42,476 nucleotides of DNA. Origin: Escherichia phage forsur. Below the pieces are notes generated by a model. That model ran no database searches. It had not been told where the DNA came from and saw only the letters and a list, made by a program, of their open reading frames with translations. Shown here one piece after another: positions 1 through 42,476 of the stretch. Location: the sequence record MN850617.1; one strand, written 5' to 3'. The position numbers and the translations under genes were made by a program. Position 1 is the stretch's first letter, and the number at the start of each line of letters is the position of its first letter.

Positions 1-487
1 CCGTATCATCTCCATGCTGTTGGAGAAGTTCCCGCAGGTTCACGTAGTGTGTGCCGAGGGCAACCACGATATGGCCAGCTCAATCTGGATGCGAGAGCTG
101 CTGCATGTACTGTACGCCGACGAGCCGCGTGTCACTGTTGACCGCAGCCCTGACCCGTACTACTGCTATGAGCATGGCGAGACGGCACTGTTCTTCCACC
201 ATGGTCACAAGCGTAAGGCTGAGCAACTGGAGACTGTGCTGGTTGCGAAGTTCCGCGAAGTGTATGGCCGAACCAAACATGCGTATGCACACGTTGGCCA
301 CCTGCATCACAAGAAGGTGCTGGAGTCTGCCGTCATGATTGTCGAGCAGCACCAGACGCTGGCAGCGAAAGATGCCTATGCTTCTCGTGGTGGTTGGCTG
401 AGCGAGCGCAGCGCGAGCGTGATTACTTACCACGCCCGGTACGGTGAGGTCGCACGATTCACCATTAGCCCGGAGATGTTGGAGTGA
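1..487 (+). CDS. calcineurin-like metallophosphoesterase, 3' portion of a gene that wraps around the window ends (5' portion at 41848..42476)
   Basis: Reading frame is open from position 2 with no upstream stop; contains phosphoesterase motifs GNHD, HHGH and GHLH. Motifs DYH and GDFLHWD sit at the window end in the same frame (the 2 terminal nt plus nt 1 form one codon). Stop TGA at 485..487. Confidence 0.75.
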   Translation, partial: RIISMLLEKFPQVHVVCAEGNHDMASSIWMRELLHVLYADEPRVTVDRSPDPYYCYEHGETALFFHHGHKRKAEQLETVLVAKFREVYGRTKHAYAHVGHLHHKKVLESAVMIVEQHQTLAAKDAYASRGGWLSERSASVITYHARYGEVARFTISPEMLE

Positions 488-708: not shown

Positions 709-1177
709 CGGCACACTGGCTGATGGCCGTTGGCGTCTGCACCTGCTGCCTCCACCGGAGCGTCGGCACCTTGATGAAGCGTGGGCCGAGTTCAACTTGG
801 CTGGCGCTGACGACCCAGCGTTTCAGGACACGATTGATATTGTGAACGCACTGGCCCTCACGTATCGCATTATCATCCTGACCGGACGCGGAGCCGTGGC
901 CCGTGAAGTAACCGAGCAGTGGCTCGATGACAATGGTGTGGTGTACGACAAGCTCATCATGCGTGAGATTGGCGACTGCCGCAAAGACACTGAGATGAAG
1001 CGTGCAGCGCTGGAAGACATTGGCATTGAGAATATTGTCTGTGCCTTTGATGACCTGCCGCACATCGTGGACTTCATGCGAAGCCTAGGCATTACCGTGT
1101 ATGAAGTTACCCGGTACGAGGACAACCATGAGTACGTCCACGCCAATGCGAAATACGATGGAGATAAAGATGCCTAA
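674..1177 (+). CDS. HAD-superfamily phosphatase-like protein
   Basis: ATG at 674 preceded by GAGGAAG; N-terminus MHMKDTVVVDLDGTLADG carries the HAD motif I (DxDGT). The ORF track starts it earlier at 581, but the RBS supports 674. Confidence 0.7.
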   Translation: MHMKDTVVVDLDGTLADGRWRLHLLPPPERRHLDEAWAEFNLAGADDPAFQDTIDIVNALALTYRIIILTGRGAVAREVTEQWLDDNGVVYDKLIMREIGDCRKDTEMKRAALEDIGIENIVCAFDDLPHIVDFMRSLGITVYEVTRYEDNHEYVHANAKYDGDKDA

Positions 1178-1706
1178 ACGTGGTGACAAGTTCTGTCTGG
1201 ATATCAACCGTGAATACCACAACGCTCGGCTCAATGAGCTGCGCGATAACGGTGTCATCCTAACCTACGACGAGCCTTACGATGTACCGAATGACAGTCG
1301 TGATTACTACACCTGCGTGTACAACGGCAAGACTGAGGTGCTGGTGCTGGAACCATATGAGGTGCAGGAAGTGCAGACGGCATTCATCCCGGTAGAGCCG
1401 GAGGCCGGGCCGGGCGGTATGAAGTATGACGGCGGCAAGCCACGCATGGCCCTGCTGCTCGACGGCTGCCCGAATGCACTGGAGGCTGTGGCCAGCGTGC
1501 TGACCTTCGGCGCTCAGAAGTATGCAGCTCACTCATGGCAGACTGTGCCGGAAGGTGAGGAACGTTACAAGTCAGCGCTGCTCCGGCACCTGACTGCGGT
1601 GGGTAAGGGCGAAGAACTCGACCCGGAATCTGGCCTGCACCATCTGGCGCACGCCGCTTGCAACGCACTGTTCATTCTCGAACTGGCATTAAGGAAAACT
1701 AAATGA
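1170..1706 (+). CDS. hypothetical protein with dATP/dGTP pyrophosphohydrolase-like N-terminal-type domain (tentative)
   Basis: ATG at 1170 after GGAGATAAAG; segment KYDGGKPRMALLLDGCPNALEAVASVLTFGAQKYAAHSW resembles, from memory, the KYD..GK..FGA.KY..NW signature of phage dNTP pyrophosphohydrolase N-domains. Domain call unverified. Confidence 0.5.
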   Translation: MPKRGDKFCLDINREYHNARLNELRDNGVILTYDEPYDVPNDSRDYYTCVYNGKTEVLVLEPYEVQEVQTAFIPVEPEAGPGGMKYDGGKPRMALLLDGCPNALEAVASVLTFGAQKYAAHSWQTVPEGEERYKSALLRHLTAVGKGEELDPESGLHHLAHAACNALFILELALRKTK

Positions 1707-1890: not shown

Positions 1891-2124
1891 ATGAGCAGAT
1901 ACCAACGAGCCATTGAGGATACCGTGGTCGAGAAAGGTGTGTGCGGGGAGTGCCACGGCTGTGGCACATTCACCAGCATGACCATTCGACACGAGCTTGT
2001 CCAAACTGAATGTGAAGCCTGTGGTGGCACAGGCGTGACTGACCCGGCACTGCAACGTTCAGTGCTGCGGGAACAAGGTATGCGCTGCCAAGTGCAGCCG
2101 GGCTATGACCAACCAACGGAGTAA
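1891..2124 (+). CDS. small zinc-finger protein (CxxC...CxxC)
   Basis: ATG 1891 preceded by AGGAG; product contains CGECHGCG and CEACGG Cys pairs. Confidence 0.6.
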   Translation: MSRYQRAIEDTVVEKGVCGECHGCGTFTSMTIRHELVQTECEACGGTGVTDPALQRSVLREQGMRCQVQPGYDQPTE

Positions 2125-4559
2125 TGATGGACTTACTTGCTGAGCAGATTCGACTGGAAGAAGAAGCGCGAGCCAGACACCGCGAGGGCTGGCTGGATAA
2201 TATCAGAGAGGCGTTGGCCGCTGGCCGGGCTGGTTCAGTACCATTGCTCCAGCGTATGATGGTTGAGGCGTATCCTCAAGTTGAAGCTGCGATGCAAGAA
2301 CTCCTGAATGAAACTGCCCGTGGCTATGGTGCGCAGTACCGGACATACATGCGGGAGCTGGGGCCGCGAGCTTGTGCCTCACTCGCGTTGAGCATGGCTG
2401 TGTCCGGTGCCGCTGCTGAGCAAGCAGTGCTTAACTTGCTCAAGGACATGGGCAAGGCTCTCATGGCTGAGGTGGTGTACCTTCGGGCCAAGGCTGCCGG
2501 GCCTGTGCAGGCTGCGTACATGGCCAAGGTTAAGACTGACGTTAAGCGCTCTCGTTCCAAGTCAGCTAACCATGTGTATAACAAGGCGAAAGCGTCGGCG
2601 TCTAACGTTGGCGTTGAGCTGGATATCCTGCCACAGCGTGCGCTCATCACCATTGGTAAGATGATGATGAAGTGCATCGAGCCTACTGGTCTGCTGGTCA
2701 CTATGCGTGTCGGCGGCAACCACCGTCAGCGCGGCACCGCGCACTTCGCACTGCATGAAGATGTGCTGGCAACGATGAAAGATTGGATGGACTTGCCACG
2801 GGCAGACGGCCTGTGCTGTCCTCCAATGATTATCCCGCCAGCGCAGATTGCACGCGATGGTCGTAGTGGTATGTGGCACTCGCCGGGGCAGGCTGCCATG
2901 TACCGGGCAATCAGCCGCATGAACCACCGTGGCTACCGTGCGCTGGGTGTTGACCCACTGCCCATCATAGAGCCGTGTATGATGCTCAGCAGCGTTCCGT
3001 ACCGAGTTAACCCAATGGTATTGGAGTTCCTGAGAACGAACCGTACAGGCGTTATGGGGCTGCCTGTGCCGCCTCGTGAGCCTAAGCTCCCGTTCACCAT
3101 CCCGGCTGGTGTCAGCTTCGCTCAGTACATTAGCAAGTTCCCACCAGAAATGCAGCAGCAGATGGAGTCGGAAGCCCACGAGTACAAGGTGAAGACCCGT
3201 CTGTATTACAACGAGCTGCGCAAGTTCACGTCACAAATGCTGGCGCTGAACGGTGCAGTCAAAGAGGCCGAGCGCTATGCGCCATACGATAGGGTATATC
3301 TCCCGACTTACGCCGATACGCGGGGCCGAATTTATTATTCTTCGACCCTTAACCCTCAGTCCATCGACGCGGTGCGAGCGCTGCTCGAACTTGCTGAACC
3401 AGTGGCTCTCGGAGACGAGGGGCTGTTCTGGCTCAAGGTACATGTTGCGAATTGTTTTGGATACGACGCCACCGACTTCGACGACCGGGCGGCGTGGACG
3501 GACAAAACACTCCCCCGACTACGTGAGGCGTGCCGTCTTCCAGAGGCATTTGATTCGTTCTGGTCAGAAGCCGATAGCCCTATCTCAGCGTGGGCTGCTG
3601 CTGTTGAACTCATTCGAGCTATCGACTCAGGAAGTCCTGAGACTTATCCCTGCCGAGTGGTTACGCAGTGGGACGCTACATGTTCAGGACTCCAGCACCT
3701 CAGTGCGATGCTACGCGATGAGGTTGGAGGTGCTGCTGTCAATCTTGTCGATAGCGTGGGAAGAAAAGCAGACATATATCTTAAGACGGCAGCAGCGGCG
3801 ATGCAGGCTCTTGAAGAAAGTGAAGCGGCTGCGCCGACGACAATGGGTTCGTGGCTTGTTTCCATCGGCATTGTTCGGGCTATGGCCAAGAAGCCAGTGA
3901 TGACCTACGTGTACGGGGCAACCCGGCACGGCATGGTTGACTACTACTGCCTGTATCTGCGTGAGAACCGGGTCAAGCTGCCGGAGGGTAAGAGCCTGCT
4001 GGAGTGTGCTCAGTTCATTGCTGAGTTTATGTGGGCTGCTATCCCCCGCGTCGTGCCGAAAGCTGCCGAGCTGATGGCATGGTTGCAGGCTATCGCAGTA
4101 GAGGCTGCGAGCATGGGTGAGTACGTGGAGTTCACTGCGCCGTCCGGTCTTCGTGTGGTCAATCTGTATCAGGCCAGCAAAGAGATTGCGCTGAACAACA
4201 TCAACCTCATGGGTATCCACGGCATCAAGCTGCGCGAGTATCTGGATAAGCCAGATGGTCGCAAGTGTGCCGCTGCGATTGCTCCGAATTTTGTACACGC
4301 CATGGATGCCAGTCACATGATGAAGGTTCTGTGGGAGATGTGGAATAACGGGGTATACATGGTATCCATCCACGACTCGTTCGGTGTAGCGGCAGCCCAT
4401 GCTGGGTTACTGCACAAGGTCATCCGTGAAAAGTTTGTGCAGATGTATGAGGAATGTGACCCTATTCAGCAACTTGCGTCAGCATATAACCGTGAAGCTC
4501 CAGCTCGCGGTAATCTGGACATCCAGCTTGTGAAGAAATCAAGCAAGTTCTTCTGCTGA
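2124..4559 (+). CDS. single-subunit DNA-dependent RNA polymerase (T7-like)
   Basis: 811-aa ORF; contains QWDATCSGLQHLSAM (cf. T7 RNAP motif A DGSCSGIQHF) and VSIHDSFGV (cf. T7 motif C IHDSFG). Position immediately upstream of the structural module. Confidence 0.95.
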   Translation: MMDLLAEQIRLEEEARARHREGWLDNIREALAAGRAGSVPLLQRMMVEAYPQVEAAMQELLNETARGYGAQYRTYMRELGPRACASLALSMAVSGAAAEQAVLNLLKDMGKALMAEVVYLRAKAAGPVQAAYMAKVKTDVKRSRSKSANHVYNKAKASASNVGVELDILPQRALITIGKMMMKCIEPTGLLVTMRVGGNHRQRGTAHFALHEDVLATMKDWMDLPRADGLCCPPMIIPPAQIARDGRSGMWHSPGQAAMYRAISRMNHRGYRALGVDPLPIIEPCMMLSSVPYRVNPMVLEFLRTNRTGVMGLPVPPREPKLPFTIPAGVSFAQYISKFPPEMQQQMESEAHEYKVKTRLYYNELRKFTSQMLALNGAVKEAERYAPYDRVYLPTYADTRGRIYYSSTLNPQSIDAVRALLELAEPVALGDEGLFWLKVHVANCFGYDATDFDDRAAWTDKTLPRLREACRLPEAFDSFWSEADSPISAWAAAVELIRAIDSGSPETYPCRVVTQWDATCSGLQHLSAMLRDEVGGAAVNLVDSVGRKADIYLKTAAAAMQALEESEAAAPTTMGSWLVSIGIVRAMAKKPVMTYVYGATRHGMVDYYCLYLRENRVKLPEGKSLLECAQFIAEFMWAAIPRVVPKAAELMAWLQAIAVEAASMGEYVEFTAPSGLRVVNLYQASKEIALNNINLMGIHGIKLREYLDKPDGRKCAAAIAPNFVHAMDASHMMKVLWEMWNNGVYMVSIHDSFGVAAAHAGLLHKVIREKFVQMYEECDPIQQLASAYNREAPARGNLDIQLVKKSSKFFC

Positions 4560-9371: not shown

Positions 9372-9394
9372 GAAGCCCTTCATTGAGGGGCTTC
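9372..9394 (+). terminator. hairpin downstream of capsid gene (terminator candidate)
   Basis: GAAGCCC-TTCATTGAG-GGGCTTC, a perfect 7-bp stem followed by TATGATTAT; position is analogous to the T7 terminator after gene 10. Confidence 0.5.
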
Positions 9395-9427: not shown

Positions 9428-9616
9428 ATGAAAGTCATTGTTGCTGATAACGCTGGTGTTTCCTACCACATACCTGAGAGTCACATCTTCTGCTACTACG
9501 CAGATGCCACTGACCCTACGAAGACCACCGTTGTCCACGCAGCGAACGGCACGCAAATCTACAAGAGCACCTTCGACGGTACGCCTGCGGATTTGGATGC
9601 CATACTTACCAGTTAA
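9428..9616 (+). CDS. hypothetical protein (62 aa)
   Basis: ATG 9428 preceded by AAAGGAGGG; lies between capsid and tail tubular A genes. Confidence 0.5.
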   Translation: MKVIVADNAGVSYHIPESHIFCYYADATDPTKTTVVHAANGTQIYKSTFDGTPADLDAILTS

Positions 9617-9628
9617 TGGAGACATGCT

Positions 9629-13360: not shown

Positions 13361-16057
13361 ATGCCAATTATGCGTGACCAGCGTGGCGCAAATCTCAACG
13401 CTGCGCAACAGGGCGTACCGAATGTGCAGCAGGCTCAGACTCCGTTTAGTCTCGCAGGCCGCGATACTCGCATCGACACGTTCCCTACTGAGTCCATCCA
13501 GCGCGTACTCAACATGGCCAGTCAGTTGGCTGGCCGTGTCACTGAGCGTGCTAACGAGGAAGAATATCTCAAAGGTGCCAACGCCGCCGCGAGCGGTAAG
13601 GCTGTTGAGGATTTGGATTCGAACTGGCTGACTGCACAGTTCCAGAAAGCTGGTTATAACGACCAATTCAAGCGTATGCAGATGGCTGGCGTAGCCTCTG
13701 AAATCTCGGCCAACATGACCGAGTACGCTAAAATGTCTCCGCAAGACTTCCTGAAAGTCATTGATGAGAAGACTACCGGGCTGTTCGACAATACCGATGG
13801 TATGACCCTTCGCGGTCGCCAGTCGCTGCTGGAGAACCAGCTCACGTTCAGCAACACCCTGATTCGCACGCAGGCTGCGCAGCACGGTAAGTATCTGGTT
13901 GAGCAGCGTGCAGCAATGTACAACTCTCAGGGTAACACTCTGGTTACTCTGGCGGCTCAGGCCAAAGCATCCGGCGACGGCGGTGCGTATGCAAACGCCA
14001 CGGCTGCTACCATGGCTTGGGCTAAGTCCATTCTGGCCGATGACAAGCTGCCGCTGGAAACCCGGCGCACGCAGGTCACGTCCATGATGGGCCTGATGCT
14101 TTCGCAGGATTTGCGTACCCCGGTCGAGACGGCGGTTAACTCCGGCCTGTTCAACGACCTGCCTGCTGAGGACTTGGCCAAGCTGCAAGGTCAGATTCGT
14201 GAATCCAAATCTCGTACCGAGGTTCAGGATAACATGGGTCTGCTGGAGGCAAAGGGTCAGCTTGATGCTCGTCAGGCTGTGTTTGGTGACGTTACGCCGG
14301 GCCAGTACGGTCAGGTGCTCCAGCAGTTGGTGGACAACAAGCTCATCACTGCTTCCGGGTACAGCTCTGCTATCGAGTCCTTCTACAAGGATTACGCCAA
14401 GCAAGCCAAGGCCAGCCAGCTCGGTCAGGCATATGCCACCGGGAACCAGACGTACATGCTCCAGCAGGGCGCGAGTGAGCAGGATGGTGCTGACGCATTC
14501 ATCAAAGCTCGCATGAAGCAGCCGGGCGCTACGGCCAGTTCTGTGGCATTCGACCTGCTGCAAGTTGGCGCACAGACTGGCTTCCCATCTGCGTACAAAT
14601 CCGCAGCCAAACTGATTGAGCCATCCCTGTCGAACTTCGGCACCGTGGATGAGATGAACCCGGATGCTGCCCGTACTGTCACTGGTCTGATTGACCGTGT
14701 GACTGTGGCAGAAAATCAGGGTGACAAGACCGCATGGACTAAACTCCTGTCCGGTCTGTCTGAGGAAAACCAAGAGAAGATGGTGTACATGCGCGAGCAG
14801 ATTAAAGCTGGCCGCACCATCGACCAAGCTGGTCAGGGTTACATCAAGCAGCAGCAGGACTACGCTGGCTTGACCCCTGCTCAGAAATCCCAAATCTTAA
14901 CACAGCGTCAATCTGACGTGAACAGTGTAGTCAACTCACTTGAGTCCCAAGGCTTCTTATCTCGCACTTGGCAGGGCTTAGCTGGTCTGTTCTCAGACAC
15001 TCAGCAGAACCTGTTCCAAGCTCGCGTCGCATCTGGTGACATTACTGCTGCTCAGGAAATGTCGGAGGTGTCTGCCGCGTACCGCGAAGAACTGCAAGCC
15101 GTGGTGCTCAAGAACCCGAACATCACGAAAGACGGTATGGAAGCGCTTGCGTCTGCGAAGCTGGCCAACCGCGTGCTGCGCGTCGGGGAGACTACGTTCA
15201 GTCCCGGCTCTGTGCTTATCGCTCCGAGAAACCAAACTGTTCAGTCTATGCTTGGCCTGCCTGCTGACGTGGCACCTGACCGTATCGGTCGCGCCATCGC
15301 CTCACTTGACCAGAGCAAGGCACCAGAAGGTTTCGAATCGTCGTACTCGTTTATGCCCGATGGCTCACTGAACGTTCAGTTCTTCAACAAGACGGGTGAC
15401 GTTTCCCCGAACAGCTACCGGATTACGCCGCAGGCTATTCAGGAACGTATCCGTGAAGACGACCGTGCAGCCGCCACCGCAAATAACGAAGTCTACGGTG
15501 ATGGGAAACTCTTTGTCGATAAGTCCAGCAACATCGGGATTCGTGTCAATGGCGTGAATACTGCCGGGGTTGATGAGCAGCGTATGCTCTATGCCCGTGG
15601 TAAGCTGATTGAGTTCGAAGGTATCCGCAACACCACGTATCGTGACAGCACTGGCGTCCAGACCAACGGCATCGGTATCTCTGACCGCAGCCCGTACTTC
15701 TCTGAGGGTCAGGCTTCTGGTATGCGCGGTGGTACTGAATGGTCGCCTCGTACAATTCACGACACGTTCGTCAATCACACCAACATGGTAGCCCGGCAGA
15801 TGCCCGGTACTGCGGCAGCGCTGGGGTGGAGTCGTGACAACGACGCCCAGTTCCAGTTCATGATGCAGATTGGTTATCAGGCTGGCGCAAGCTGGTATCG
15901 CAACGAGGGTGCGTACAGCAAGCTGGCTGATGCTATCCGTGTTGGCGACCGTGACAAGGCTGTTCAGGCTCTGGCTGCGACTCCGGCTTACAAGCTGTCG
16001 CAGGATGAGCGCAAGCAGTATTACGTCCAAACTCTACTCGCAGGTATGCAGGAATGA
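13361..16057 (+). CDS. internal virion protein (gp15-like position)
   Basis: 898 aa; call is by position and size. Confidence 0.7.
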   Translation: MPIMRDQRGANLNAAQQGVPNVQQAQTPFSLAGRDTRIDTFPTESIQRVLNMASQLAGRVTERANEEEYLKGANAAASGKAVEDLDSNWLTAQFQKAGYNDQFKRMQMAGVASEISANMTEYAKMSPQDFLKVIDEKTTGLFDNTDGMTLRGRQSLLENQLTFSNTLIRTQAAQHGKYLVEQRAAMYNSQGNTLVTLAAQAKASGDGGAYANATAATMAWAKSILADDKLPLETRRTQVTSMMGLMLSQDLRTPVETAVNSGLFNDLPAEDLAKLQGQIRESKSRTEVQDNMGLLEAKGQLDARQAVFGDVTPGQYGQVLQQLVDNKLITASGYSSAIESFYKDYAKQAKASQLGQAYATGNQTYMLQQGASEQDGADAFIKARMKQPGATASSVAFDLLQVGAQTGFPSAYKSAAKLIEPSLSNFGTVDEMNPDAARTVTGLIDRVTVAENQGDKTAWTKLLSGLSEENQEKMVYMREQIKAGRTIDQAGQGYIKQQQDYAGLTPAQKSQILTQRQSDVNSVVNSLESQGFLSRTWQGLAGLFSDTQQNLFQARVASGDITAAQEMSEVSAAYREELQAVVLKNPNITKDGMEALASAKLANRVLRVGETTFSPGSVLIAPRNQTVQSMLGLPADVAPDRIGRAIASLDQSKAPEGFESSYSFMPDGSLNVQFFNKTGDVSPNSYRITPQAIQERIREDDRAAATANNEVYGDGKLFVDKSSNIGIRVNGVNTAGVDEQRMLYARGKLIEFEGIRNTTYRDSTGVQTNGIGISDRSPYFSEGQASGMRGGTEWSPRTIHDTFVNHTNMVARQMPGTAAALGWSRDNDAQFQFMMQIGYQAGASWYRNEGAYSKLADAIRVGDRDKAVQALAATPAYKLSQDERKQYYVQTLLAGMQE

Positions 16058-19000
16058 TTACACAAGAATCGCTCGACAAGTTCATGGCTCCCAAGCAGGG
16101 GGCCAACGCCCCTACGCTGGTGATTCCAGCTCCCGTAAAAGCTGAGACGCTCAGCACTCCACTGCAAGACGCCACTCGTCAGGGTGCCGTTGAGCAGTTT
16201 GATAAGATGCAGGAACTGGAAGCGACACCAATCGCCACGGCTTTGAGCGCTTCTGTGAAGAACTGGGATACCACTCAGCTCTTTGATGCGGCACTCAACA
16301 AGCCTGTGTTTCAGGCTGACCCGAACTTCCACCCGAACGAGGCATTGCAGAATGTCCAGTTCCCGGTGACTGAGGATGACCGCACATTCCTGTTCAAGTC
16401 CAAATCAATGGACGAGTTCAACTGGCGTACACAGCAGCTCCAAGAGATGCGCGAACGTACCCAGTTGGCTCACACTGCGCCAGTGATGAACGCAGTGCTG
16501 CAATTCGCTGACCCGCTGTACCTCGCCACTGACCTGCTCTCGATGGGAGCAGGCACTGCCCTGAAACTTGGTCGCCTCGGAACCGCCGCTGTCGGTGCAG
16601 CTTCAACTGCTGCCACTATGACAGCGGTGGGTAACGAAGCACGCCCAGTGTCTCAGAACGAGATTATCTTTGCGGCTGCCCTGCACGGGGCGGCCACCAC
16701 TGCATTCTATCGCCCCGCCGCTGCGCCAGCCCGTCGCCTTGATGAGCTGTCGCCGGAGGAATTTGCGGCAGAGATGCAGCGCCGTAACGGTATTGACCCG
16801 AACAACCCTCCGCAGTTCGACCCGAACAATGCCATGTCTCCGCTGGCAATGTCACTGGGCTTCGGGCGTCGCGGTGCCATGGAGACTGACGAGGTTCCTG
16901 AATCCATCCGGGCTGCGGCTCAGCGTGGACTCGACCTCGCTCGCCGTGGTGAGCAGACCAACCCTAAGCGTCCATTCCTTGAGTGGTCACTGTTCAAGTC
17001 GTTCAGTCAGCATTCTGACGAAGCCAGTGCTCTGGCCGGGCGTCTGCTGGATGACCCGCTGAATCCGAACATGACCTCTGCTGCTGCAATCCAGCGCGAG
17101 ACTCAGGCTCGCTTCGGTGTGCTGCTGAACCAGTATGAAGACACCCTGCGTAACGCCCTGACCACTGATGGCTGGAGTAACCTCCGGCGCTTCCGTGACC
17201 CGGTAGGCTATCGCCGGGCGCAGCAGGAGTTCGAGGCTGCTGTTCGTCTTGAGCTGGACAAGCGCATGATTGACAACAACTTCCGTGGCGCTAACCCGAA
17301 TGTGGCCGCTGCCGCCGACCGACTGGGCGAATACTCTCGCGCCGTGGGCCGGGAGCTGGAACGCAAGGGGATGGTTGAGCCGGGCTTCGTGGAGAAGAAC
17401 CCGTACTACTACCCTCGCCGGATGAACGTGACCAAGATTGAGCAGGCTGAGCAGTTGCTCGGTAAGAAGCCATTCATGAAGCAGATGACGACTGCTGTGC
17501 AGCGCGGCATCGGTACTGACCGACCGACTGCCAACGTCATTGCCCATGCCATGGTAGAGCGTGCTCGCCGTAAGGGTTACGGTATTGACAACTCCGGTAT
17601 GATTATCAACAAGGAGGGCCGCGATGAGCTGCTCGAAATCATTGAGAACTCGAAAGGACTCGACGAGGCTGCCAAGGCCCGTGCTTCCGCACTCCTTCGT
17701 GAATCTGGCTCGGACGCTGGCCGACCGTCGATGCTCAAGAGTCGTATCAACATCGACATGATGCACCAGCTCGGCCCTAACTTGCAGGTGCGTGACCTAT
17801 TCGACGACAGCATCACCAGCATGATGGATGCGTACAACCGCCGCATTACCGGGCGACTGGCTCTGCATGAAGCTGGACTGGGTACTGACGCCGAACGCGC
17901 TGCTGCTCGTGAGGCTCTGGCCAAATCCATCAAGGATGGTACGGCTCGTCGTCAGGCGCTGGAGCAGTATGACAACATCATGGCTTATTATCAGGGTGCT
18001 CCGGTCGGTGAGGAAATGCCGCAGTTCATGCGCCAGCTCTCAGCACTGACTCAGGCTACTGGTCTGGCTGCATCCGGTCTGTGGCAGTTGGTGGAATACG
18101 GCACGATGATGCAACGTTTTGGGGCGGTCAATACATTTCGCGCCATGATGCGCACAATCCCGGAAGCACGCGCATTATTTAAGCAGATGAGAGTGACTAC
18201 TAAGGAAGGTCGTCAGTTGGCCTTGGATGCTGAGGAAGCTCTGACTGCTGCGGTGGCGAGCGATATTCGTATGCGTCCAATCATGCAGCACTATGACGAC
18301 ATGTTCTCTGCTGACAAGTCACCGTGGGTTATGCGTCTTGAGCACGCCCGTGACGCCACGATGTTCATCAACATGCAGAAATACATCCACTTCCACCAGA
18401 CTCGAACCAACGCAGCTCTCGTGATGCAGACGCTGCGCAAGGCAGCAGAAGGTGATGCCAAGGCTATTGCCGCGATGAAAACCTATGGTGCCAATGATGC
18501 GCTGCTGGCTGATATCCGTAAGCAGGTTGCCAAGTCCGGCACCAAGCCGGATGCGTGGGATGAGGGTGTGTTCAACCGTACCCGCATCGTCATGATTAAC
18601 GCCATGGATGACGCTATTGTTCGCGCCCGTGTGGGCGAGCTGCCTGCATTCGCAGAGTTCAGTACCCTCGGTAAGTTCCTGTTTACGTTCCGTCGATTCG
18701 TCGCGGCTACGCACAACAAGACTCTGGTTGGTACTTGGAATCGTGAGGGTGCCCGTGGCATGGCTACGCTCATGGCGTACCAGTATCCGCTGGCGATGAT
18801 GGCCACCGCTGCCAACAACGTGATTTCCGGTAAAGCATTCTCTGACCCGGAAACCATGGCACCTAACAAGCTGGCTAGTCAAGCGCTGAATTACCTTGGT
18901 GCTATCGGCTTTGCCTCTGAGTTCACTGGTGTCCTGACTGGTCAGCAGCGTAGCTTCGGTGCGCCGGGGCTGCTGTTCCTTGACCGCGCTTATGGTGTGG

Positions 19001-21542: not shown

Positions 21543-21848
21543 ATGGCATCCGTGAACAAGCAGCTCGACGGGCTGCACCGGATGCTGGTGGAGTATCTGT
21601 CCGACCGCTTGGCCGACGCACGTAGGAAAGATGAGAACGGTAATATCATCGAACCTATGGCGGCGGCTGAGCTGTCCGTGCTTCGCCAGTTCCTGAAAGA
21701 CAACGGCATTCAGGCTGATAAAGACCACGCTGACGACCTGCTCGCGCTGCAAGAACAGCTCAACAACGAGAAGACCGAGGCTGGCCGCAAGGATATCATG
21801 ACTGCTGCCATCAACTCAATCGCAGAAGATAGCGGGATGATGCACTAA
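21543..21848 (+). CDS. terminase small subunit (putative)
   Basis: 101-aa ORF immediately upstream of the large terminase gene; call is by position and size. Confidence 0.6.
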   Translation: MASVNKQLDGLHRMLVEYLSDRLADARRKDENGNIIEPMAAAELSVLRQFLKDNGIQADKDHADDLLALQEQLNNEKTEAGRKDIMTAAINSIAEDSGMMH

Positions 21849-23608
21849 TGGATTTACAACGCCGCATGGTGATGGCAGGAATCGTTCGCGCTCACTACGA
21901 GAACAACTTCCCGCTGTTCCTGCACGACTACTTCGCATGGCTGGGCTTTGACCTCACTGAAATGCAGCTCGACATTGGCCGCTACATGGCCGACCGGACG
22001 CTCAAGAACAAGTGCGTCATGGCGCAGCGTGGTGAGGCTAAGTCCACCATCGGCATTGCTCGCGCTCTGTACGAATTTGTGCAGATGCCGAACGCTACTG
22101 TCCTGCTCGTATCCGGTTCCGACGACTATGCTGGTACGCTGTCGCACGCTATCGTGTCGGCTATCATGCAATGGGACAGGTTGGAATGGTTACGCCCGGA
22201 GACTCGCGCTGGCGCACGTACATCGTACACCGATGGCTTCGACGTGCATCACGCATTCCGTATCCCTGACAAACAACCCTCTGTAAAAGCGGTCGGTATC
22301 TTCGGCCAGTTACAGGGGAACCACGTATCGCTGTTGATTGCCGATGACGTGGAGACTACCAGTAACGGTAGCTCTCCTGCCAACCGCGCCCGTATCAACA
22401 CCCTGACCAAAGAGTTCGCGGCTATCGCCAACGATGGTGCAGAGATTCTGTACCTCGGCACGCCACAGACTCAGGACTCCATCTACAACACGCTCCCGCA
22501 GCGTGGCTTCGACGTTCGCATCTGGCCCGGTCGTTTCCCAACGGTTGAGGAAGAAGAACGCTATGGCGGTTGTCTGGCCCCATGGATTAAGCAGAAGATG
22601 GAGGGCCACCCGGAACTTCGCACAGGCTACGGTATCCTTGGAAACCGTGGTGCGCAGACCGACCCGCAACGCTACTCCGAAGAAAAGCAGTTGCAGAACG
22701 AACGAGACTACCAGCAGGCAGGCTTCCAGTTGCAGTTCATGCTGGACACTTCTCTGTCGGATGCTCTCAAACAGACCTTGCATCTCAAGGACTTAATCTT
22801 CTTCCACGGCTCGCCTATCTCCGCGCCGGAAGTCTTGCATTGGTCGAATCACCCACGGCACGCCGCCGAGCTGCCACTGGATTTCCCACTCGCTCGTGCG
22901 CAGCTATTCTTGGCTGCTGATTTCTCGGACACTTATGTACCATTCGAAAATGCCTCGGCGTTTCTTGACCCTGCTGGTGGTGGGTCGGATGAATCAGTTA
23001 TCATCGTCACCGCTTCTATCGGCCCGTTTATCCACGTCCTTGGTATGCACGTCTACCACGGCGGCCAGACGGAGGAAAACATCCAGACGGCGGTGGCGTG
23101 GCTAGGTGAGCTGGGCTGCAAACGTCTCGTCATTGAGGACAACATGGGCCACGGCACCGTGACCAACATGTACCGAGGTGAGATTAAGCGGCAGAAGCTG
23201 ACCATGGGCTGCGAGGGTGTATACTCGTCCGGCCAGAAAGAGGTGCGTATCATCAACCGCCTCGGCCCAATCATGCAGCGCCACCGTGTGGTTATCCACT
23301 GGAGCGTTGTTGAAGAAGACCTGCGGTTATGCCGGGGTATGGCCAACGGTGGCCGTGAGTACAGCCTGTTCTGGCAGCTCCAGAACCTGACTCAAGACCG
23401 TCAATCCATCCCGCATGATGACCGAATTGAAACCTTAGCCGCTGCCGTGTACCTCCACGCCGAGGTGTTGCAGCAAGACGAAAACGAAGAAGCGGAGCGC
23501 CGTGCAGTCGCTGTGGCCAAAGAGTTCATCGCTAACCCTATGGGGTATGATGACCCGAAATGGCGCAGCCACAAGCCTGTACGCGGTACGCGACGGAGAA
23601 TTAGATAA
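21848..23608 (+). CDS. terminase large subunit
   Basis: 586 aa; KAVGIFGQLQGNHVSLLIADDVETTSNGSS...ILYLGTPQTQDSIYNTLPQRGFDVRIWP parallels recalled T7 gp19 ([30 protein letters not shown]...VIYLGTPQTEMTLY). Confidence 0.95.
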   Translation: MDLQRRMVMAGIVRAHYENNFPLFLHDYFAWLGFDLTEMQLDIGRYMADRTLKNKCVMAQRGEAKSTIGIARALYEFVQMPNATVLLVSGSDDYAGTLSHAIVSAIMQWDRLEWLRPETRAGARTSYTDGFDVHHAFRIPDKQPSVKAVGIFGQLQGNHVSLLIADDVETTSNGSSPANRARINTLTKEFAAIANDGAEILYLGTPQTQDSIYNTLPQRGFDVRIWPGRFPTVEEEERYGGCLAPWIKQKMEGHPELRTGYGILGNRGAQTDPQRYSEEKQLQNERDYQQAGFQLQFMLDTSLSDALKQTLHLKDLIFFHGSPISAPEVLHWSNHPRHAAELPLDFPLARAQLFLAADFSDTYVPFENASAFLDPAGGGSDESVIIVTASIGPFIHVLGMHVYHGGQTEENIQTAVAWLGELGCKRLVIEDNMGHGTVTNMYRGEIKRQKLTMGCEGVYSSGQKEVRIINRLGPIMQRHRVVIHWSVVEEDLRLCRGMANGGREYSLFWQLQNLTQDRQSIPHDDRIETLAAAVYLHAEVLQQDENEEAERRAVAVAKEFIANPMGYDDPKWRSHKPVRGTRRRIR

Positions 23609-24288
23609 TGTCCATCATCACCATCACTGATGCTCAGCGGTATGAGCTTGGTTATCGCTGCGGTATCGCAGCTAACGAGACTCAGCGCTTCATCAATGAC
23701 ACCCGTGCAGTGACGGCAGCTCAGGCTGCTGACATTGAAACGGCTATCACCAATCTGGTGGCGGCACTTGAGGCTGCTGGCTATGCTGGTACGCCGGAAG
23801 GTTCCGCTCTGCTGGCTGACGGCGCTACTGTATCTGTGGTCAACTCCGCAGGCAACGACGCGCACAATGCCACAGCCAACGTTACTGGCACCACGCTGGA
23901 TAATGTACAGCTCGTCCTGTCTACCGCAGCACTGGTAGACCACACTGACGCAACTGAGATTCGTCGCTTCGACGGCTCTATCCTTGGCATCACCACCGCT
24001 ACGGCCCGTGTAGCTGATGGTCTGCTGAGCAACGTGCGGCTCCCGGCCAACGCTGATGCAGTGGTTAACGGTACGGCTTATTCCGTCCGTAACTCTGCTG
24101 GCGCTGATGGCCACAACGCCACCGCTGTCGTGGCAAGCAACGGTGCTCTCTCCGGCTTCAACCTCGCCGCTACTGTGGCTATGGTGGATAACGGTGATGC
24201 ACTGGCAATCCCGGTCACTGGCACGTACACCAACACCGTGACCTTCGCTGTTTCCGCTGGTGCAATCACTGGCATTACCCTCTCTTAA
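23608..24288 (+). CDS. hypothetical protein with internal sequence repeat
   Basis: 226 aa; two similar segments (TVSVVNSAGNDAHNATANVTG / YSVRNSAGADGHNATAVVASNG); Ala/Thr/Gly/Asn-rich; located between terminase and lysis genes. Confidence 0.6.
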   Translation: MSIITITDAQRYELGYRCGIAANETQRFINDTRAVTAAQAADIETAITNLVAALEAAGYAGTPEGSALLADGATVSVVNSAGNDAHNATANVTGTTLDNVQLVLSTAALVDHTDATEIRRFDGSILGITTATARVADGLLSNVRLPANADAVVNGTAYSVRNSAGADGHNATAVVASNGALSGFNLAATVAMVDNGDALAIPVTGTYTNTVTFAVSAGAITGITLS

Positions 24289-24983: not shown

Positions 24984-25335
24984 CATCCACTCGCGTATGG
25001 GCGCTGTGGAGGCTCGTATGCAATCCGTAGAAACACGCCTCGACAAACACGAGATTCAAATCGCCAACCTTGAGAAAGGTGACGCTGCTATGCTGGCCAA
25101 GCTATCGGAGAACGACTCCCGGTGGCTGGAGATTCAGCAGCAGCTCCGTGTCGTCGAGCAAATTCAGGACATTCAAAAGACTATGAGCCACATCGGTAAG
25201 CTGTTCTCTTACGCGGCTCACGCCGTCAAGTGGTGTCTCCTGACCGCTTCACTCGTTAGCGGTATCTATCTTGCGGTCAAGGCTGGCGACCTAACGGCGC
25301 TCCAGTCCTTTATCACAACGATTATGGGGATGTAA
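24952..25335 (+). CDS. holin candidate (coiled-coil N-terminal region, C-terminal TMD)
   Basis: 127 aa; hydrophobic segment VKWCLLTASLVSGIYLAV near the C-terminus; overlaps the lipoprotein gene and directly precedes the endolysin gene. Confidence 0.4.
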   Translation: MTEAKKEPAPNIHSRMGAVEARMQSVETRLDKHEIQIANLEKGDAAMLAKLSENDSRWLEIQQQLRVVEQIQDIQKTMSHIGKLFSYAAHAVKWCLLTASLVSGIYLAVKAGDLTALQSFITTIMGM

Positions 25336-25871
25336 TGACTAACTTTGAAATCTGTATGAAGTTCACCGGGCTGGCCGAGGGTGGATACACCAAGCTGCCC
25401 GGTGACACTGGAGGGGAAACCAACCATGGAATTAGTGACGCTCGTGATGGGAAGCTGGATGGCAGAGCTTGTGGTGTCCCTACTGGGCTTGGCGGCACTG
25501 TGTGCGTGCCTATCAAAGACCTCACCAAAGAGCAAGCCGAGGCAATCTATCGCCGGGACTACTACAGCCCCATCAGAGGTGACGAGCTTCACCCTGCGAT
25601 TGCATGTGCCGTGTTTGATTACGGCGTCAACTCCGGCATCTCCCGTGCTGCTAAAGCTCTACAGCGGGTATGCGGCGTTGCACAGGACGGGGACATTGGT
25701 ACTGTCACCTTGGAAGCAGCACAACGTCTGGAACCTCACGCCGCAGCAGCAGCCATCTGTGACCTTCGTATTGCGTTCCTAAAGGCTTCTAAAGCCCCGA
25801 CAGTCGTTCGGTATAGGGATGCCTTGGTTGCTCGTGCAAAACGCTGTAGCGCTTACTGTGCGACGCTGTAG
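25335..25871 (+). CDS. endolysin, GH108-type muramidase domain with peptidoglycan-binding-like C-terminal region
   Basis: N-terminus FTGLAEGGYTKLPGDTGGETNHGIS matches the recalled GH108 signature (EGGY...D.GG.T..GI); C-terminal AAKALQRVCGVAQDGDIGTVT resembles PG-binding repeats; no signal peptide. Confidence 0.8.
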   Translation: MTNFEICMKFTGLAEGGYTKLPGDTGGETNHGISDARDGKLDGRACGVPTGLGGTVCVPIKDLTKEQAEAIYRRDYYSPIRGDELHPAIACAVFDYGVNSGISRAAKALQRVCGVAQDGDIGTVTLEAAQRLEPHAAAAAICDLRIAFLKASKAPTVVRYRDALVARAKRCSAYCATL

Positions 25872-26039
25872 GGGCATCTGAAAGCTGACACATTGAACAG
25901 GCCGTGGGTGCAATACCCCGGCTTGAAAATTGAACGTTTATGCGTGGGCCTCCCTCGACCCGAATGACCGCGCGTACCCCCATGACGTGTGCGCGGATTA
26001 GCCTCGCGACGTGCGCGATATTGCTCGCGTGCGCTGCGC

Positions 26040-26450
26040 GGCGCGTCAAGAGGATTGCCTGCGTGCGGTATAGCTCGTGCGTGTCGCGTTTCATCGTCTG
26101 CCGTGTGGCGTGCTGTGCGCTGTCCTGCTGGCTGTGCTGTGCGGTGCTGTCCTATGGGGACGCTCTGCGCTGGCTGTGCTGTGCTGCGTGCTGCGCTCGG
26201 TCGGGCGGGTATCTGTCTCTTTTGCCGTGGTACGCTCTGCGCCGTGGTGGTGCTGTGTGGTGGTGGTGCTGCCGTGGTGCTGTCCTGTCTGCTGGTCTAC
26301 TGTCTGCGCCGCCAGCTCTGCGCGTCATGCTCTGCTACCTGCTGCTACTGTCCTACTGCGTTCACTGGCTGCCGCCTGTCATCCTGTCGGATTCCATCCG
26401 TTGCCGTTCCGCGCTCGCTTGTTTCGGCTGCGCCGCGCTCGCTCTGCGTA
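26040..26450. repeat. A-depleted (C/G/T only on + strand) low-complexity block with degenerate GCTG/CTGTG/GGTG repeats; candidate terminal-repeat region
   Basis: Adenine is nearly absent on the + strand over ~400 bp, so no + frame contains a stop; non-coding position between the last late gene and the early promoters. Confidence 0.6.
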
Positions 26451-26462
26451 TCTAGCGATACA

Positions 26463-26485
26463 TATCACTATAGTCACTTTCATAA
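26463..26485 (-). promoter_or_regulatory. inverted exact copy of the T7-class promoter-like element at 4585..4607 (would fire leftward into the A-depleted block)
   Basis: + strand TATCACTATAGTCACTTTCATAA is the reverse complement of 4585..4607 (23/23). Confidence 0.4.
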
Positions 26486-26499
26486 TTATCTATTGATAT

Positions 26500-26590
26500 C
26501 AGTAACTTATAACCTATCTGATAACGGTATCTATCCTATGCAATAACCTATTCAATCAAATATTTATTCCTAATGATTACAGTAACTTAT
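26500..26590. repeat. AT-rich segment with 11-bp direct repeat CAGTAACTTAT (26500..26510 and 26580..26590)
   Basis: Read directly; copies are 80 bp apart, each preceded by TGAT; candidate origin or packaging iterons. Confidence 0.4.
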
Positions 26591-26622
26591 CCACTATTTG
26601 AGCTATTCAGTGAAAATAAATC

Positions 26623-26651
26623 TTGCAATGCTGTTTGTGATTTGCTGTAAT
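26623..26651 (+). promoter_or_regulatory. host sigma70-type early promoter P1
   Basis: -35 TTGCAA (26623..26628), 17-bp spacer, extended -10 TGcTGTAAT (hexamer 26646..26651); A-rich UP-like tract upstream. Confidence 0.6.
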
Positions 26652-26726
26652 TCTCATCGCCGGGTAGCAGAACATCGCTACACGGTGGCAAGACGGTAAC
26701 ACTGCTCTTTAACAATCTGGAGTGTA

Positions 26727-26755
26727 TTGACAAGGCAAGCTCACTATGCTGTAAT
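26727..26755 (+). promoter_or_regulatory. host sigma70-type early promoter P2
   Basis: -35 TTGACA (26727..26732), 17-bp spacer, extended -10 TGcTGTAAT (hexamer 26750..26755). Confidence 0.65.
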
Positions 26756-26863
26756 GCTTCCAGTCAGCCAGACAAGCCAAACAGTCATGGATAAAGACGT
26801 TAAAACCCGCGCAGGCTAACTGGTACGGATTATTCATCTCAGAATGGGCGCTGAATAAAACGG

Positions 26864-26892
26864 TTGACAGGATGAAACGAGTATGCTGTAAT
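26864..26892 (+). promoter_or_regulatory. host sigma70-type early promoter P3
   Basis: -35 TTGACA (26864..26869), 17-bp spacer, extended -10 TGcTGTAAT (hexamer 26887..26892); AATAAAA upstream. Confidence 0.65.
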
Positions 26893-26944
26893 ACGCTCCA
26901 GATTGACAGGGCAAGCAAGCCTGACAGTCAGTAGTAAAAAGTAG

Positions 26945-26973
26945 TTGACAAGCTGAATACACTGTGTTGTAAT
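26945..26973 (+). promoter_or_regulatory. host sigma70-type early promoter P4
   Basis: -35 TTGACA (26945..26950), 17-bp spacer, extended -10 TGtTGTAAT (hexamer 26968..26973); GTAAAAAG upstream. Confidence 0.65.
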
Positions 26974-27451
26974 CAGCACCGAGTTGGAAGGATGCAAAAC
27001 ATCCTGCTCTGAGTGAACGCAAACTGGCCGCGTAGTGTCACGGCTCACTGGGTATCCGCCGCAGGTTGGAACTGGGTGAGGCATCGCCGAAAGGCAACGG
27101 TATCGCAACAATGCTAACGCCGTAGGGGTAGCGCCTGATGCAAGGTAACGGAGAAGCGCGATAGACGCAGCGCAGTATCAGTACAATACCAAACGTCTTA
27201 TAAGGCGCGGAGTATAGCGGGTAGGTAGTCAAACGGCTTGTTAGCTGGCAACGGTGAGCAAGATACGCGACGGACTGCTGGAAGACTCCTGAGAGTGGAT
27301 GCAGACAATATCCACAGCGCGAAATGGGCGGGGCGATTTTTCAGGGTAGTGAATCCGACAAGCCAATCAATGCCACTGAGTGCAGACTGTACGGCGCGTC
27401 ACAATGGGTTCACTATCCACCTGAAAATAGCCAACAACTGGAGAAATAACT

Positions 27452-27844
27452 ATGTACCGTATCTATGCAAGCGCATATCGTCAGAACAACGCTGAGTGTG
27501 TTAATCTGGCGCTTCATTGCAAGGCACTGCGAACGGTGCAGGATATGTTCGGAGTGATTCCGGTCACACTGACAGGCAAGTTCGACAATGCGTATGAGTT
27601 AAGCATGGTCTTTCCTGTCGATGGAATCTACGAAATCAGACAGGCTGTTAAGCTGTTCTGTAAAGCCTTTGAACAGGACTGCATCATGGTAGTGACCGAT
27701 GACAATGATGCAATCTTCATGGATTCACCATATCCGGGCAAGCCTGCTGGCAAGTTTGTCAGCAAGACAGAAGCGGAGATGGAAGCCGGGCAGTTCACTG
27801 CTTGGACTTACGATGGTGAGCAATTTTGGGTAGTGGAGGCGTAA
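27452..27844 (+). CDS. hypothetical early protein (130 aa), first gene after the leader
   Basis: ATG 27452 with GGAG 8 nt upstream; ORF in track. Confidence 0.7.
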   Translation: MYRIYASAYRQNNAECVNLALHCKALRTVQDMFGVIPVTLTGKFDNAYELSMVFPVDGIYEIRQAVKLFCKAFEQDCIMVVTDDNDAIFMDSPYPGKPAGKFVSKTEAEMEAGQFTAWTYDGEQFWVVEA

Positions 27845-29025: not shown

Positions 29026-29106
29026 ATGTCTACACTGAAACTGGTACTGATTTCTAACATCGCTGCTGACGCTTTCGACGCTGATGACGTGGACTTCTCT
29101 GCGTGA
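29026..29106 (+). CDS. tiny acidic peptide (26 aa), possible remnant of the acidic-tail family
   Basis: ATG 29026 with GAGG 8 nt upstream; MSTLKLVLISNIAADAFDADDVDFSA. Confidence 0.3.
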   Translation: MSTLKLVLISNIAADAFDADDVDFSA

Positions 29107-40557: not shown

Positions 40558-41532
40558 ATGAGTAGACTTCAACGCTTACTCCACAATGCAGAGGAACTTG
40601 ATGACCAGTTTGATGGTTACGTGTCTGGTCGTATCTTGCTGTGCGATGCTGACTCCACGGTCTACGTCGCGGCAGCAACCACGAAGAACATCGAGACAGC
40701 GAAGACACGATTCTGTTCCGGGGTACTGACCGCCAAGTTCCTCGCCAATGCTCAGTCAGTTCGTATCGAGTTGACCGCTGCGGAGTGTACGAAAGCTGGA
40801 CGGTACAAGCTGCGTGGGGCCAAGCTGTACCAAGGCAACCGAGACAAAGACCGCAAGCCCGGTCTGGTCGAACCGTTGCGTAAAGCAATTGGCCGGAACA
40901 TGTTCAACGTCCCGGATGGTGAGGACTGGTACGTCCACCTGAACTTTGAGTTCGAGGCAGACGATACCTTAATCATGGATGCGTGGACGATTGGCATTAA
41001 CGATGCAGTAATCTACAGCGCGGATAAAGACCTGCGTTGTTGGCCGGGCAGATTCCTTGACCCGTATGACAACAAGGTGCTGGAGCCGTGCGTTGGTATT
41101 GGCAGGCTGTGGTGGCATGAAACGAAAAGCGACAAGTCGCTGGTCGGCCATGGGCCTATCTTCTTTTGGGCGCAGATGTTGATGGGCGACACCGCCGACA
41201 ACATTGCTGGCGTGAAGAAGGTTGGTAAGCAGACTGCCTACGACATGCTGGTTGATTATCAAGAGATTGATGATGAATCAGTGGTTGCGGAATTGGTGCT
41301 GCGTGAGTACATGCAGCGTGACCAGAACCCGTGGCCGGAGGCAGTGGCGCTGTGGCTGTACCGCACGCCGACCTACTCATTCGCAGCCCACTTGAACACG
41401 CTGACCTTGAGCAAGGAGCTGCGTGTCTGGCTGCATAAGAAACTGGGTGAGGAATGGTATGCGGAAAGTGACTGGCGCGACTCTGTTGCAGCTTCGGAAG
41501 AATGCGATGGGTTGCAACTGCCCACTCTGTGA
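40558..41532 (+). CDS. 5'-3' exonuclease (T7 gp6-like)
   Basis: ILLCDADSTVYVAAA, FEADDTLIMDAW...AVIYSADKDLRCWP and FFWAQMLMGDTADNIAGV parallel recalled T7 gp6 segments (ILVMDGDWLVFQAM, LEGDDVMGVI...AVIISCDKDFKTIP, WHLFQTIKGDITDGYSGI). Confidence 0.85.
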   Translation: MSRLQRLLHNAEELDDQFDGYVSGRILLCDADSTVYVAAATTKNIETAKTRFCSGVLTAKFLANAQSVRIELTAAECTKAGRYKLRGAKLYQGNRDKDRKPGLVEPLRKAIGRNMFNVPDGEDWYVHLNFEFEADDTLIMDAWTIGINDAVIYSADKDLRCWPGRFLDPYDNKVLEPCVGIGRLWWHETKSDKSLVGHGPIFFWAQMLMGDTADNIAGVKKVGKQTAYDMLVDYQEIDDESVVAELVLREYMQRDQNPWPEAVALWLYRTPTYSFAAHLNTLTLSKELRVWLHKKLGEEWYAESDWRDSVAASEECDGLQLPTL

Positions 41533-41839
41533 TGAGCCGATGGTTGACCTCAAGCTCATGGTGGTTGACCACGACCATGTGACTGGAGAGATTCGCGGTG
41601 TTATCTGCCGCTGGTGTAATGCTCAGCTCGGTAAGGTGGAGAACTCTGCCAACCGAGCAAAGCGCCAGCGCACAGTGGATGACTGGTTGGATAGCGCCAT
41701 CGAGTGGCGACGTAAGCAGCACACTGGTCTGATGTATCCGACACATAAGACAGAGGCTGAGAAGAAAGCGGCAGCAGCCGACAGACGTAAAAAGGCAGCA
41801 GCAGCTAAAGCGCGTGCCATAATCACTAAGGGGAAATGA
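41459..41839 (+). CDS. recombination endonuclease VII
   Basis: CNCPLCDEPM...VDHDHVTGEIRGVICRWCNAQLG matches the Endonuclease VII zinc-binding/catalytic signature; start uncertain (41459 with GAGGA upstream, or 41507); overlaps exonuclease gene end. Confidence 0.8.
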   Translation: MRKVTGATLLQLRKNAMGCNCPLCDEPMVDLKLMVVDHDHVTGEIRGVICRWCNAQLGKVENSANRAKRQRTVDDWLDSAIEWRRKQHTGLMYPTHKTEAEKKAAAADRRKKAAAAKARAIITKGK

Positions 41840-41847
41840 TGACGAAG

Positions 41848-42476
41848 TTAAGTAACGCACAGCTCAAGGCAGATATCGCTGAGGGTCTTGGCACCACTGA
41901 GATTGCTGAGAAGCATGACATGACCACGGGTGCCATTCGATACCGGAAGCGCCAGCTTGCCAAGAGCGGCTGGAGTCCTGAGCACGACATGACCAAGGAA
42001 GTGCCGGAGCCGTATGCGGTTAAGGGTACGTCCACGCTGTATGATAAGGACGGCAACGTGGTCATGCAGTGGGTGAAGACTGCGCTCGACCGTGAGCAGG
42101 AGCTGGCCCTGCTGCAAGAGGCAGTGGATGCAATCAGCGAAACCATTACCCCGGAAGTGGCCCGGCCATTCAGCGGTGGCCCGGCACCTGCTGAGCTGCT
42201 GAACCTGTTCATCCTCACTGACTACCACCTCGGTATGCTGGCGTGGTCAGAGGAAACTGGTGATGACTGGGATATGAAGATTGCCGAAGACCTGCTGGTC
42301 AAGTGGTTCGCGGCAGCCATTGCCAGTGCGCCACCAGCACAGGTTGCTATCTTCGGACAGCTCGGTGACTTCCTACACTGGGATGGGTTAGATGCAGTGA
42401 CGCCATCGAGTGGGCATGTGCTGGATGCTGACACGCGATTCCAGAAGCTGGTGCGTGTGGCTATCCGGGCGCAGCG
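41848..42476 (+). CDS. calcineurin-like metallophosphoesterase, 5' portion (continues into 1..487); N-terminal HTH-like segment
   Basis: No stop before window end; carries phosphoesterase motif I (LTDYH) and II (GDFLHWD); N-terminal TEIAEKHDMTTGAIRYRKRQLAKSGW looks like a helix-turn-helix. Confidence 0.75.

Follow-up and report, generated by a model that had tools for sequence, protein, structure and literature searches.

The genome record of Escherichia phage forsur (MN850617.1; 42,476 bp, GC 55.39%), which was analysed over its whole length and is referred to here as the window, opens and closes inside one and the same gene, and the join of its last segment (41839..42476) to its first (1..487) is real rather than a product of chance, as judged from the homologues of the encoded protein. 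Very probably, the record derives from a linear, non-permuted virion DNA of ~42.7 kb with a direct terminal repeat of ~250 bp and its left end at window position 25955, which was collapsed by assembly and opened within this HTH-phosphoesterase gene; the position and length of the repeat and the history of the assembly are what we infer within this explanation. The splitting of the gene is an artefact of assembly bookkeeping and not a biological feature, and both the phage and the phenomenon of records opening in this manner were already known. The features that bear on this reading are collected in Table 1.

Table 1. Features of the forsur window, in window coordinates, ordered from the split gene through the genome to the predicted left end.
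Feature	Position	Strand	Remarks
Split gene, 5' part	41839..42476	+	Codons 1-212 and two bases of codon 213; N-terminal helix-turn-helix, beta-hairpin, motifs I and II
Split gene, 3' part	1..487	+	Third base of Arg213, codons 214-374, TGA 485-487; motifs III-V
Motif I DYH; motif II GDFLHWD	42220-42228; 42364-42384	+	
Motif III GNHD; motif IV HHGH; motif V GHLH	59-70; 197-208; 296-307	+	
Deposited CDS QHR71802.1, 'calcineurin-like phosphoesterase [Escherichia phage forsur]'	14..487	+	157 aa, internal Met start
Recombination endonuclease VII	41540..41839	+	PF02945; directly upstream of the split gene
dATP/dGTP diphosphohydrolase-like gene	1170-1706		Two genes downstream of the split gene; PF18909 N-terminal domain, E 3e-34
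RNA polymerase ORF (single-subunit)	2124-4559	+	
TerS	21543-21848	+	PF11123, T7 gp18 family, E 2.5e-17
TerL	21848-23608	+	PF22530, T7 terminase RNaseH-like domain, E 1.7e-23
Putative collapsed single copy of the terminal repeat	25955..26201	+	By homology to J8-65; right boundary +/-20 bp
Short-repeat arrays	26202-26455	+	GC-rich, A-poor, non-coding
165-bp island	26456-26620	+	27% GC, non-coding
Putative host-type early promoters TTGACA-N17-TGTAAT	26727, 26864, 26945	+	TTGCAA variant at 26623; cluster 26623..26973

The plus-strand frame that starts at ATG 41839 comprises 212 codons and two further nucleotides before the window closes. When the ends are joined in silico, these two nucleotides (CG) and the first base of the window (C) form codon 213 in phase with the 3' part, and translation up to its TGA yields a product of 374 amino acids. 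The exact phase claimed for the two open frames in a preliminary description of this DNA was thereby reproduced, and it is further sustained by the full-length match to phage glasur given below. The start of the gene had been set at 41848 in that description; this position lies in frame but corresponds to codon 4, and the true start is 41839. The ATG at this position shares one nucleotide with the TGA of the preceding endonuclease VII gene and is preceded by a ribosome binding site (AAGGGG) 5 nt upstream, while another in-frame ATG at 41836 is the less likely start. No direct repeat of at least 10 nt is common to the two window ends, so that sequence has been neither gained nor lost where they meet.

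Two open frames agree in phase by chance in one of three cases, so that it is homology that settles the question of the join. The joined protein aligns over 374 of 374 residues, with 99.7% identity, to the uninterrupted glasur_29 'phosphoesterase' of phage glasur, and the DNA around the junction (the last 300 plus the first 300 nt of the window) aligns to glasur 15962-16560 with 98.3% identity and 0 gaps. At least 80% of the joined protein is matched in one piece in 1946 of the 2041 matching phage records, and a large protein collection holds more than 6000 full-length homologues of ~372-392 aa. It is hardly credible, then, that the pieces at either end of the window are distinct entities (halves of a naturally split or pseudogenised gene, or the ends of a prophage or concatemer fragment) that meet in phase by accident. 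The one-in-three chance of agreement would allow for such an accident, as would the annotation of the homologue in phage LIMEzero as two ORFs. Against this, the joined product has the length of its homologues and aligns end to end, the junction DNA lacks gaps with respect to glasur, all parts of glasur are present once in the window with neither host DNA nor a duplicated segment, and the window length equals the published length of the forsur genome. The earlier claim that the ends of the record divide a single gene of the phosphoesterase type is upheld by this homology and by the gap-free junction.

The joined protein carries the five metallophosphoesterase motifs in canonical order (DYH 128-130, GDFLHWD 176-182, GNHD 233-236, HHGH 279-282 and GHLH 312-315), with motifs I and II at the end of the window and III to V at its start, all five where the preliminary description had placed them. 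They follow the pattern of the superfamily (DXH / GDXXD(H) / GNH(D/E) / H / GHXH), which supplies the metal ligands. Thirteen positions (D128, H130, D177, H180, D182, N234, H235, D236, H279, H280, H282, H313 and H315) are invariant in a set of 53 homologous sequences spanning 56-89% identity. That the joined protein should match a calcineurin-like phosphoesterase profile across the junction proved true in part: Pfam PF00149 (Metallophos) gave no match even at E<=1, but residues 2-373 align to positions 2-389 of the 390 of PHROG 704 ('DNA repair exonuclease'; E 8.5e-145), across codon 213. No NCBIfam family was found for the joined protein, and a profile of the 53 sequences retrieved no relevant match among PDB sequences. 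Among the 120 homologues listed, a precomputed PF00149 match is present in one (P0073); precomputed HTH matches (GerE, HTH_8, HTH_1, HTH_23) occur in some homologues. Since Pfam, NCBIfam and the PDB profile search find nothing, the phosphoesterase assignment rests on PHROG 704 together with the motifs and the fold.

The fold was evaluated on an AlphaFold2 model of a 99%-identical homologue (P0001), with a mean pLDDT of 78.4. In the predicted layout, a three-helix HTH (residues 1-45) is followed by a beta-hairpin and helix (59-99) and by the phosphoesterase core (120-368), and the junction codon falls within a helix (194-222) between motifs II and III. Foldseek searches of the PDB with this model recovered 127 matches at E<=1e-3, and the top ones are all metallophosphoesterases, including Mre11 (4nzv, E 2e-7), PolD DP1, Rv0805, YfcE, Vps29, acid sphingomyelinase and GpdQ, with modest TM-scores of 0.3-0.46. 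The model is consistent with the two-layer beta-sandwich phosphoesterase fold of the superfamily. Taken with PHROG 704 and the invariance of the motifs, it identifies the predicted product as an HTH domain fused to a divergent calcineurin-like metallophosphoesterase. Mre11/SbcD, PolD-DP1 and Rv0805/GpdQ resemble the forsur protein in the five ordered motifs and the predicted alpha/beta sandwich, whereas the N-terminal HTH and beta-hairpin (residues 1-100) are an addition of the forsur protein.

Most likely, the enzyme is a nuclease or phosphodiesterase that depends on metal and acts on nucleic acid, a substrate that we infer. Action on something other than DNA ends, such as host signalling nucleotides, appears improbable; it is conceivable because phosphodiesterases of cyclic nucleotides and glycerophosphodiesters (Rv0805, GpdQ) are found besides Mre11 among the neighbours in fold, and it would give a core gene of the Autographiviridae a new activity, but the present evidence gives it no preference over an ordinary DNA nuclease. 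The family of the split gene, which forms more than 6000 clusters of proteins at 90% identity and occurs in 2041 phage records, appears to have no characterised member, and the PHROG label 'DNA repair exonuclease' is a transferred name only. An Mre11/SbcD orthologue was considered as well and ruled out, as there is neither a Rad50/SbcC partner nor a match to the family models, and the likeness is at the level of the fold only; no SbcC/Rad50-like gene occurs among the 55 glasur annotations colinear with the window.

Because the record opens arbitrarily inside the gene, its annotation is truncated. The ORF at 14..487 is identical, residue for residue, to the deposited protein QHR71802.1, and the full 374-aa product of forsur is absent from a collection of ~15 billion proteins. 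The corrected gene call is join(41839..42476,1..487). The LIMEzero homologue (FR751545, 15326-16449) is annotated as ORF27 and ORF28, two pieces that are joined by tblastn; a frameshift, or else an error made in sequencing the older record, accounts for this state.

The closest DNA matches of the window are the Bonnellvirus (Autographiviridae) phages usur, glasur, RZ4 and Kc261. Glasur (MN850583) and usur (MN850624) are ~96-98% identical to forsur in DNA and colinear with it throughout, and all long ORFs that are colinear with glasur genes lie on the plus strand. Upon rotation, the window and the whole glasur record (42,507 bp) are colinear, with 93-98% identity and each part present once, and the ends of the glasur record fall on the adjacent window bases 26462 and 26463. 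By its RNA polymerase, unidirectional genes, gene order and nucleotide identity, forsur is, at the level of sequence, a member of Bonnellvirus and of the Autographiviridae. The colinearity with all of glasur also supports the earlier proposal that the window represents a genome of full unit length and no fragment. The description of the record as complete holds for the unit length, but not for the second copy of the ~247-bp terminal repeat, which is missing from it.

The place at which the record opens is matched by similar irregularity among its relatives. In sibling records, whose gene order is unchanged, the phosphoesterase gene is found at 15623(+), 25257(-), 29980(-), 13492(+), 25866(+), 14749(-) and 12354(-), among other positions, so that the origin and strand of records are arbitrary in this genus. 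Arbitrary openings are seen, too, in two metagenomic contigs that each comprise a whole related phage (42,649 and 42,767 bp). The rotated colinearity of the record and the varied starts of its siblings therefore bear out the view that an assembly closed into a circle was opened arbitrarily in this record. In the source study, Nextera XT Illumina libraries were assembled de novo with CLC or SPAdes, with no mention of PhageTerm, terminal repeats, circularity or permutation (Olsen et al. 2020, Viruses 12:986). A later bonnellvirus announcement reports a SPAdes contig that was 'circularised' by trimming an overlap of ~55 bp, and in another study Unicycler 'circularised' contigs of T7-type phages were re-organised after PhageTerm analysis and run-off sequencing. 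The sequence of events proposed for forsur is as follows. Phages of the T7 type replicate as head-to-tail concatemers, which the terminase cuts at fixed sites, duplicating the repeat; short-read assembly would then merge the identical repeat copies, closing the assembly graph into a circle, and the contig would be written out from an arbitrary break point without termini analysis, in the case of forsur from the codon for Arg213.

The physical ends were predicted by comparison with the type phage J8-65 (KM247287). Its record carries an annotated 259-bp repeat_region at both ends (1-259 and 40723-40981), the two copies being identical; the left end reads TCGACCCGAA, and at the right end GGGCCTCCC precedes the same sequence. 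The corresponding junction, CTCCC/TCGACCC, occurs once in the window (25950-25961) and is also found in glasur and altidsur. In a global alignment, positions 1-255 of J8-65 map onto the repeat segment of Table 1 with ~65% identity, a low value because of which the right boundary of the repeat is approximate. The predicted repeat begins 84 bp past the last gene, which encodes the endolysin (25335-25871). These data place the physical left end most likely at window position 25955, and the virion DNA is most likely linear and non-permuted, with a length of ~42.7 kb (42,476 + 247). J8-65 and forsur share their gene order, a phosphoesterase with 86% identity and the left-end motif; in contrast, the J8-65 record begins at the repeat and contains both copies, whereas that of forsur contains a single interior copy and begins inside a gene.

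The terminal repeat is found in no other bonnellvirus record among those compared. None is annotated in the LIMEzero record, the 'repeat_region' of altidsur is a 41-bp internal feature, and a scan of IMG/VR with the terminus motif retrieved only J8-65 itself and one Enterobacter-derived contig, which ends 1.3 kb downstream of the motif. The J8-65 paper states that MiSeq reads were 'assembled using SSAKE', without an account of how the repeat was determined. It could therefore be asked whether the J8-65 repeat is an assembly overlap, the true bonnellvirus ends lying elsewhere in the non-coding region at 25.9-27.4 kb or having a repeat of another length. This is suggested by its restriction to a single record, by the brevity of the published assembly description and by the closeness of 259 bp to the length of a read, and we regard it as unlikely. 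In J8-65 the repeat sits exactly in the gap from the last gene to the first; it starts 73 bp past the last gene and before the early promoters, where repeats of the T7 type lie; a random overlap would land in this ~1.5-kb region only ~4% of the time; and the CTCCC/TCGACCC junction is conserved in the window, glasur and altidsur despite diverged flanks.

The preliminary description had called the genome circularly permuted. This holds for the record alone; as a property of the virion it is unlikely in view of the T7-type terminase subunits, the 259-bp repeats of J8-65 and the description of the family. A virion DNA that is truly permuted and terminally redundant, packaged by headful as in P22, Sf6 and T4 and without fixed ends, would yield an assembly that closes into a circle and a record whose ends carry no repeat. 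It would also fit with the arbitrary opening of the relatives' metagenomic contigs and with the lack of a termini analysis in the source study of forsur. A collapsed terminal repeat, however, predicts a circular assembly equally well, and other lines of evidence make permutation highly unlikely. Both TerL and TerS are of the T7 type and not of the headful (P22/Sf6/T4-like) type, the J8-65 repeat stands at both ends of its record, the motif of the left end is conserved and occurs a single time in the window, and descriptions of the Autographiviridae give unidirectional genes and short exact terminal repeats without permutation.

The reading of forsur as a linear genome with fixed ends is also in agreement with its resemblance to T7-type phages. 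As in these, a TerS of the gp18 family and a TerL with the T7 nuclease domain are encoded, the genes lie on one strand, a single-subunit RNA polymerase is present, and the non-coding left end has arrays of short repeats with clustered, putative host-type promoters behind them. The terminal repeat of T7 measures 160 bp; that of forsur, at a predicted ~250 bp, is longer and without sequence similarity to it.

Downstream of the repeat, the sequence is organised as one would expect for the left end of a T7-type genome. The promoter-like sites of 26623-26973 were detected by direct pattern search, and the window contains no other such sites. All four have a -10 region reading TGCTGTAAT or TGTTGTAAT, and they lie 670-1020 nt from the predicted left end, ahead of the first gene, which encodes a SAM lyase (27452-27844). 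By analogy with A1-A3 of T7, these sites are probably early promoters for the host polymerase. A generic sigma-70 scan of 25800-27600 called no promoters; it missed these sites because the -10 hexamer TGTAAT has G for A at position 2.

The interval 25955-26620 is strongly strand-asymmetric, with ~500 bp at 63-66% GC that are almost without A, and contains degenerate short repeats (TGCTG, GTGCTGC and GCCGTGGTGCT). The plus-strand ORFs 25940..26455 and 25989..26546, as well as the homologous minus-strand CDS glasur_55, look spurious.

The value of these observations is practical and not conceptual: they allow the forsur record to be re-oriented and one gene annotation to be repaired. For uses such as the comparison of gene orders, pangenome counts, synthetic rebooting or cloning that depends on the termini, the record should be given a new first position at ~25955, supplied with the other copy of the ~247-bp repeat and corrected by calling the split gene anew. 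In the case of T7-type phages, circularity of an assembly does not imply circular permutation.

Further observations concern the surroundings of the split gene and other loci. The gene belongs to a DNA-metabolism module in the order DNA polymerase, 5'-3' exonuclease, endonuclease VII, split gene, PNK-type phosphatase, dATP/dGTP diphosphohydrolase-like gene and RNA polymerase; in siblings, the homologue of the diphosphohydrolase-like gene is annotated as 'putative phosphodiesterase'. With respect to glasur, the window lacks ~241 bp (glasur 2628-2868) in the early region, at ~29076-29092, and shows a diverged stretch of ~390 bp (23827-24216) within the gene that follows TerL (23608-24288). Proteins of the 90% cluster of P0001 are also encoded on contigs of whole-phage size (42.4-42.9 kb) filed under assemblies of Enterobacter kobei, E. 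bugandensis and E. asburiae, with the product names 'winged helix-turn-helix domain-containing protein' or 'oxidoreductase'. These contigs indicate that DNA of bonnellviruses was assembled along with that of bacterial isolates, either as contamination or in a carrier state. Finally, an ORF of 62 aa with a strong ribosome binding site (9429-9617) lies between a hairpin resembling a terminator of the capsid gene (9372-9394) and the tail tube A gene. It is missing in glasur, usur and J8-65, is found only in mellemsur (79% DNA identity), and looks like a small moron.
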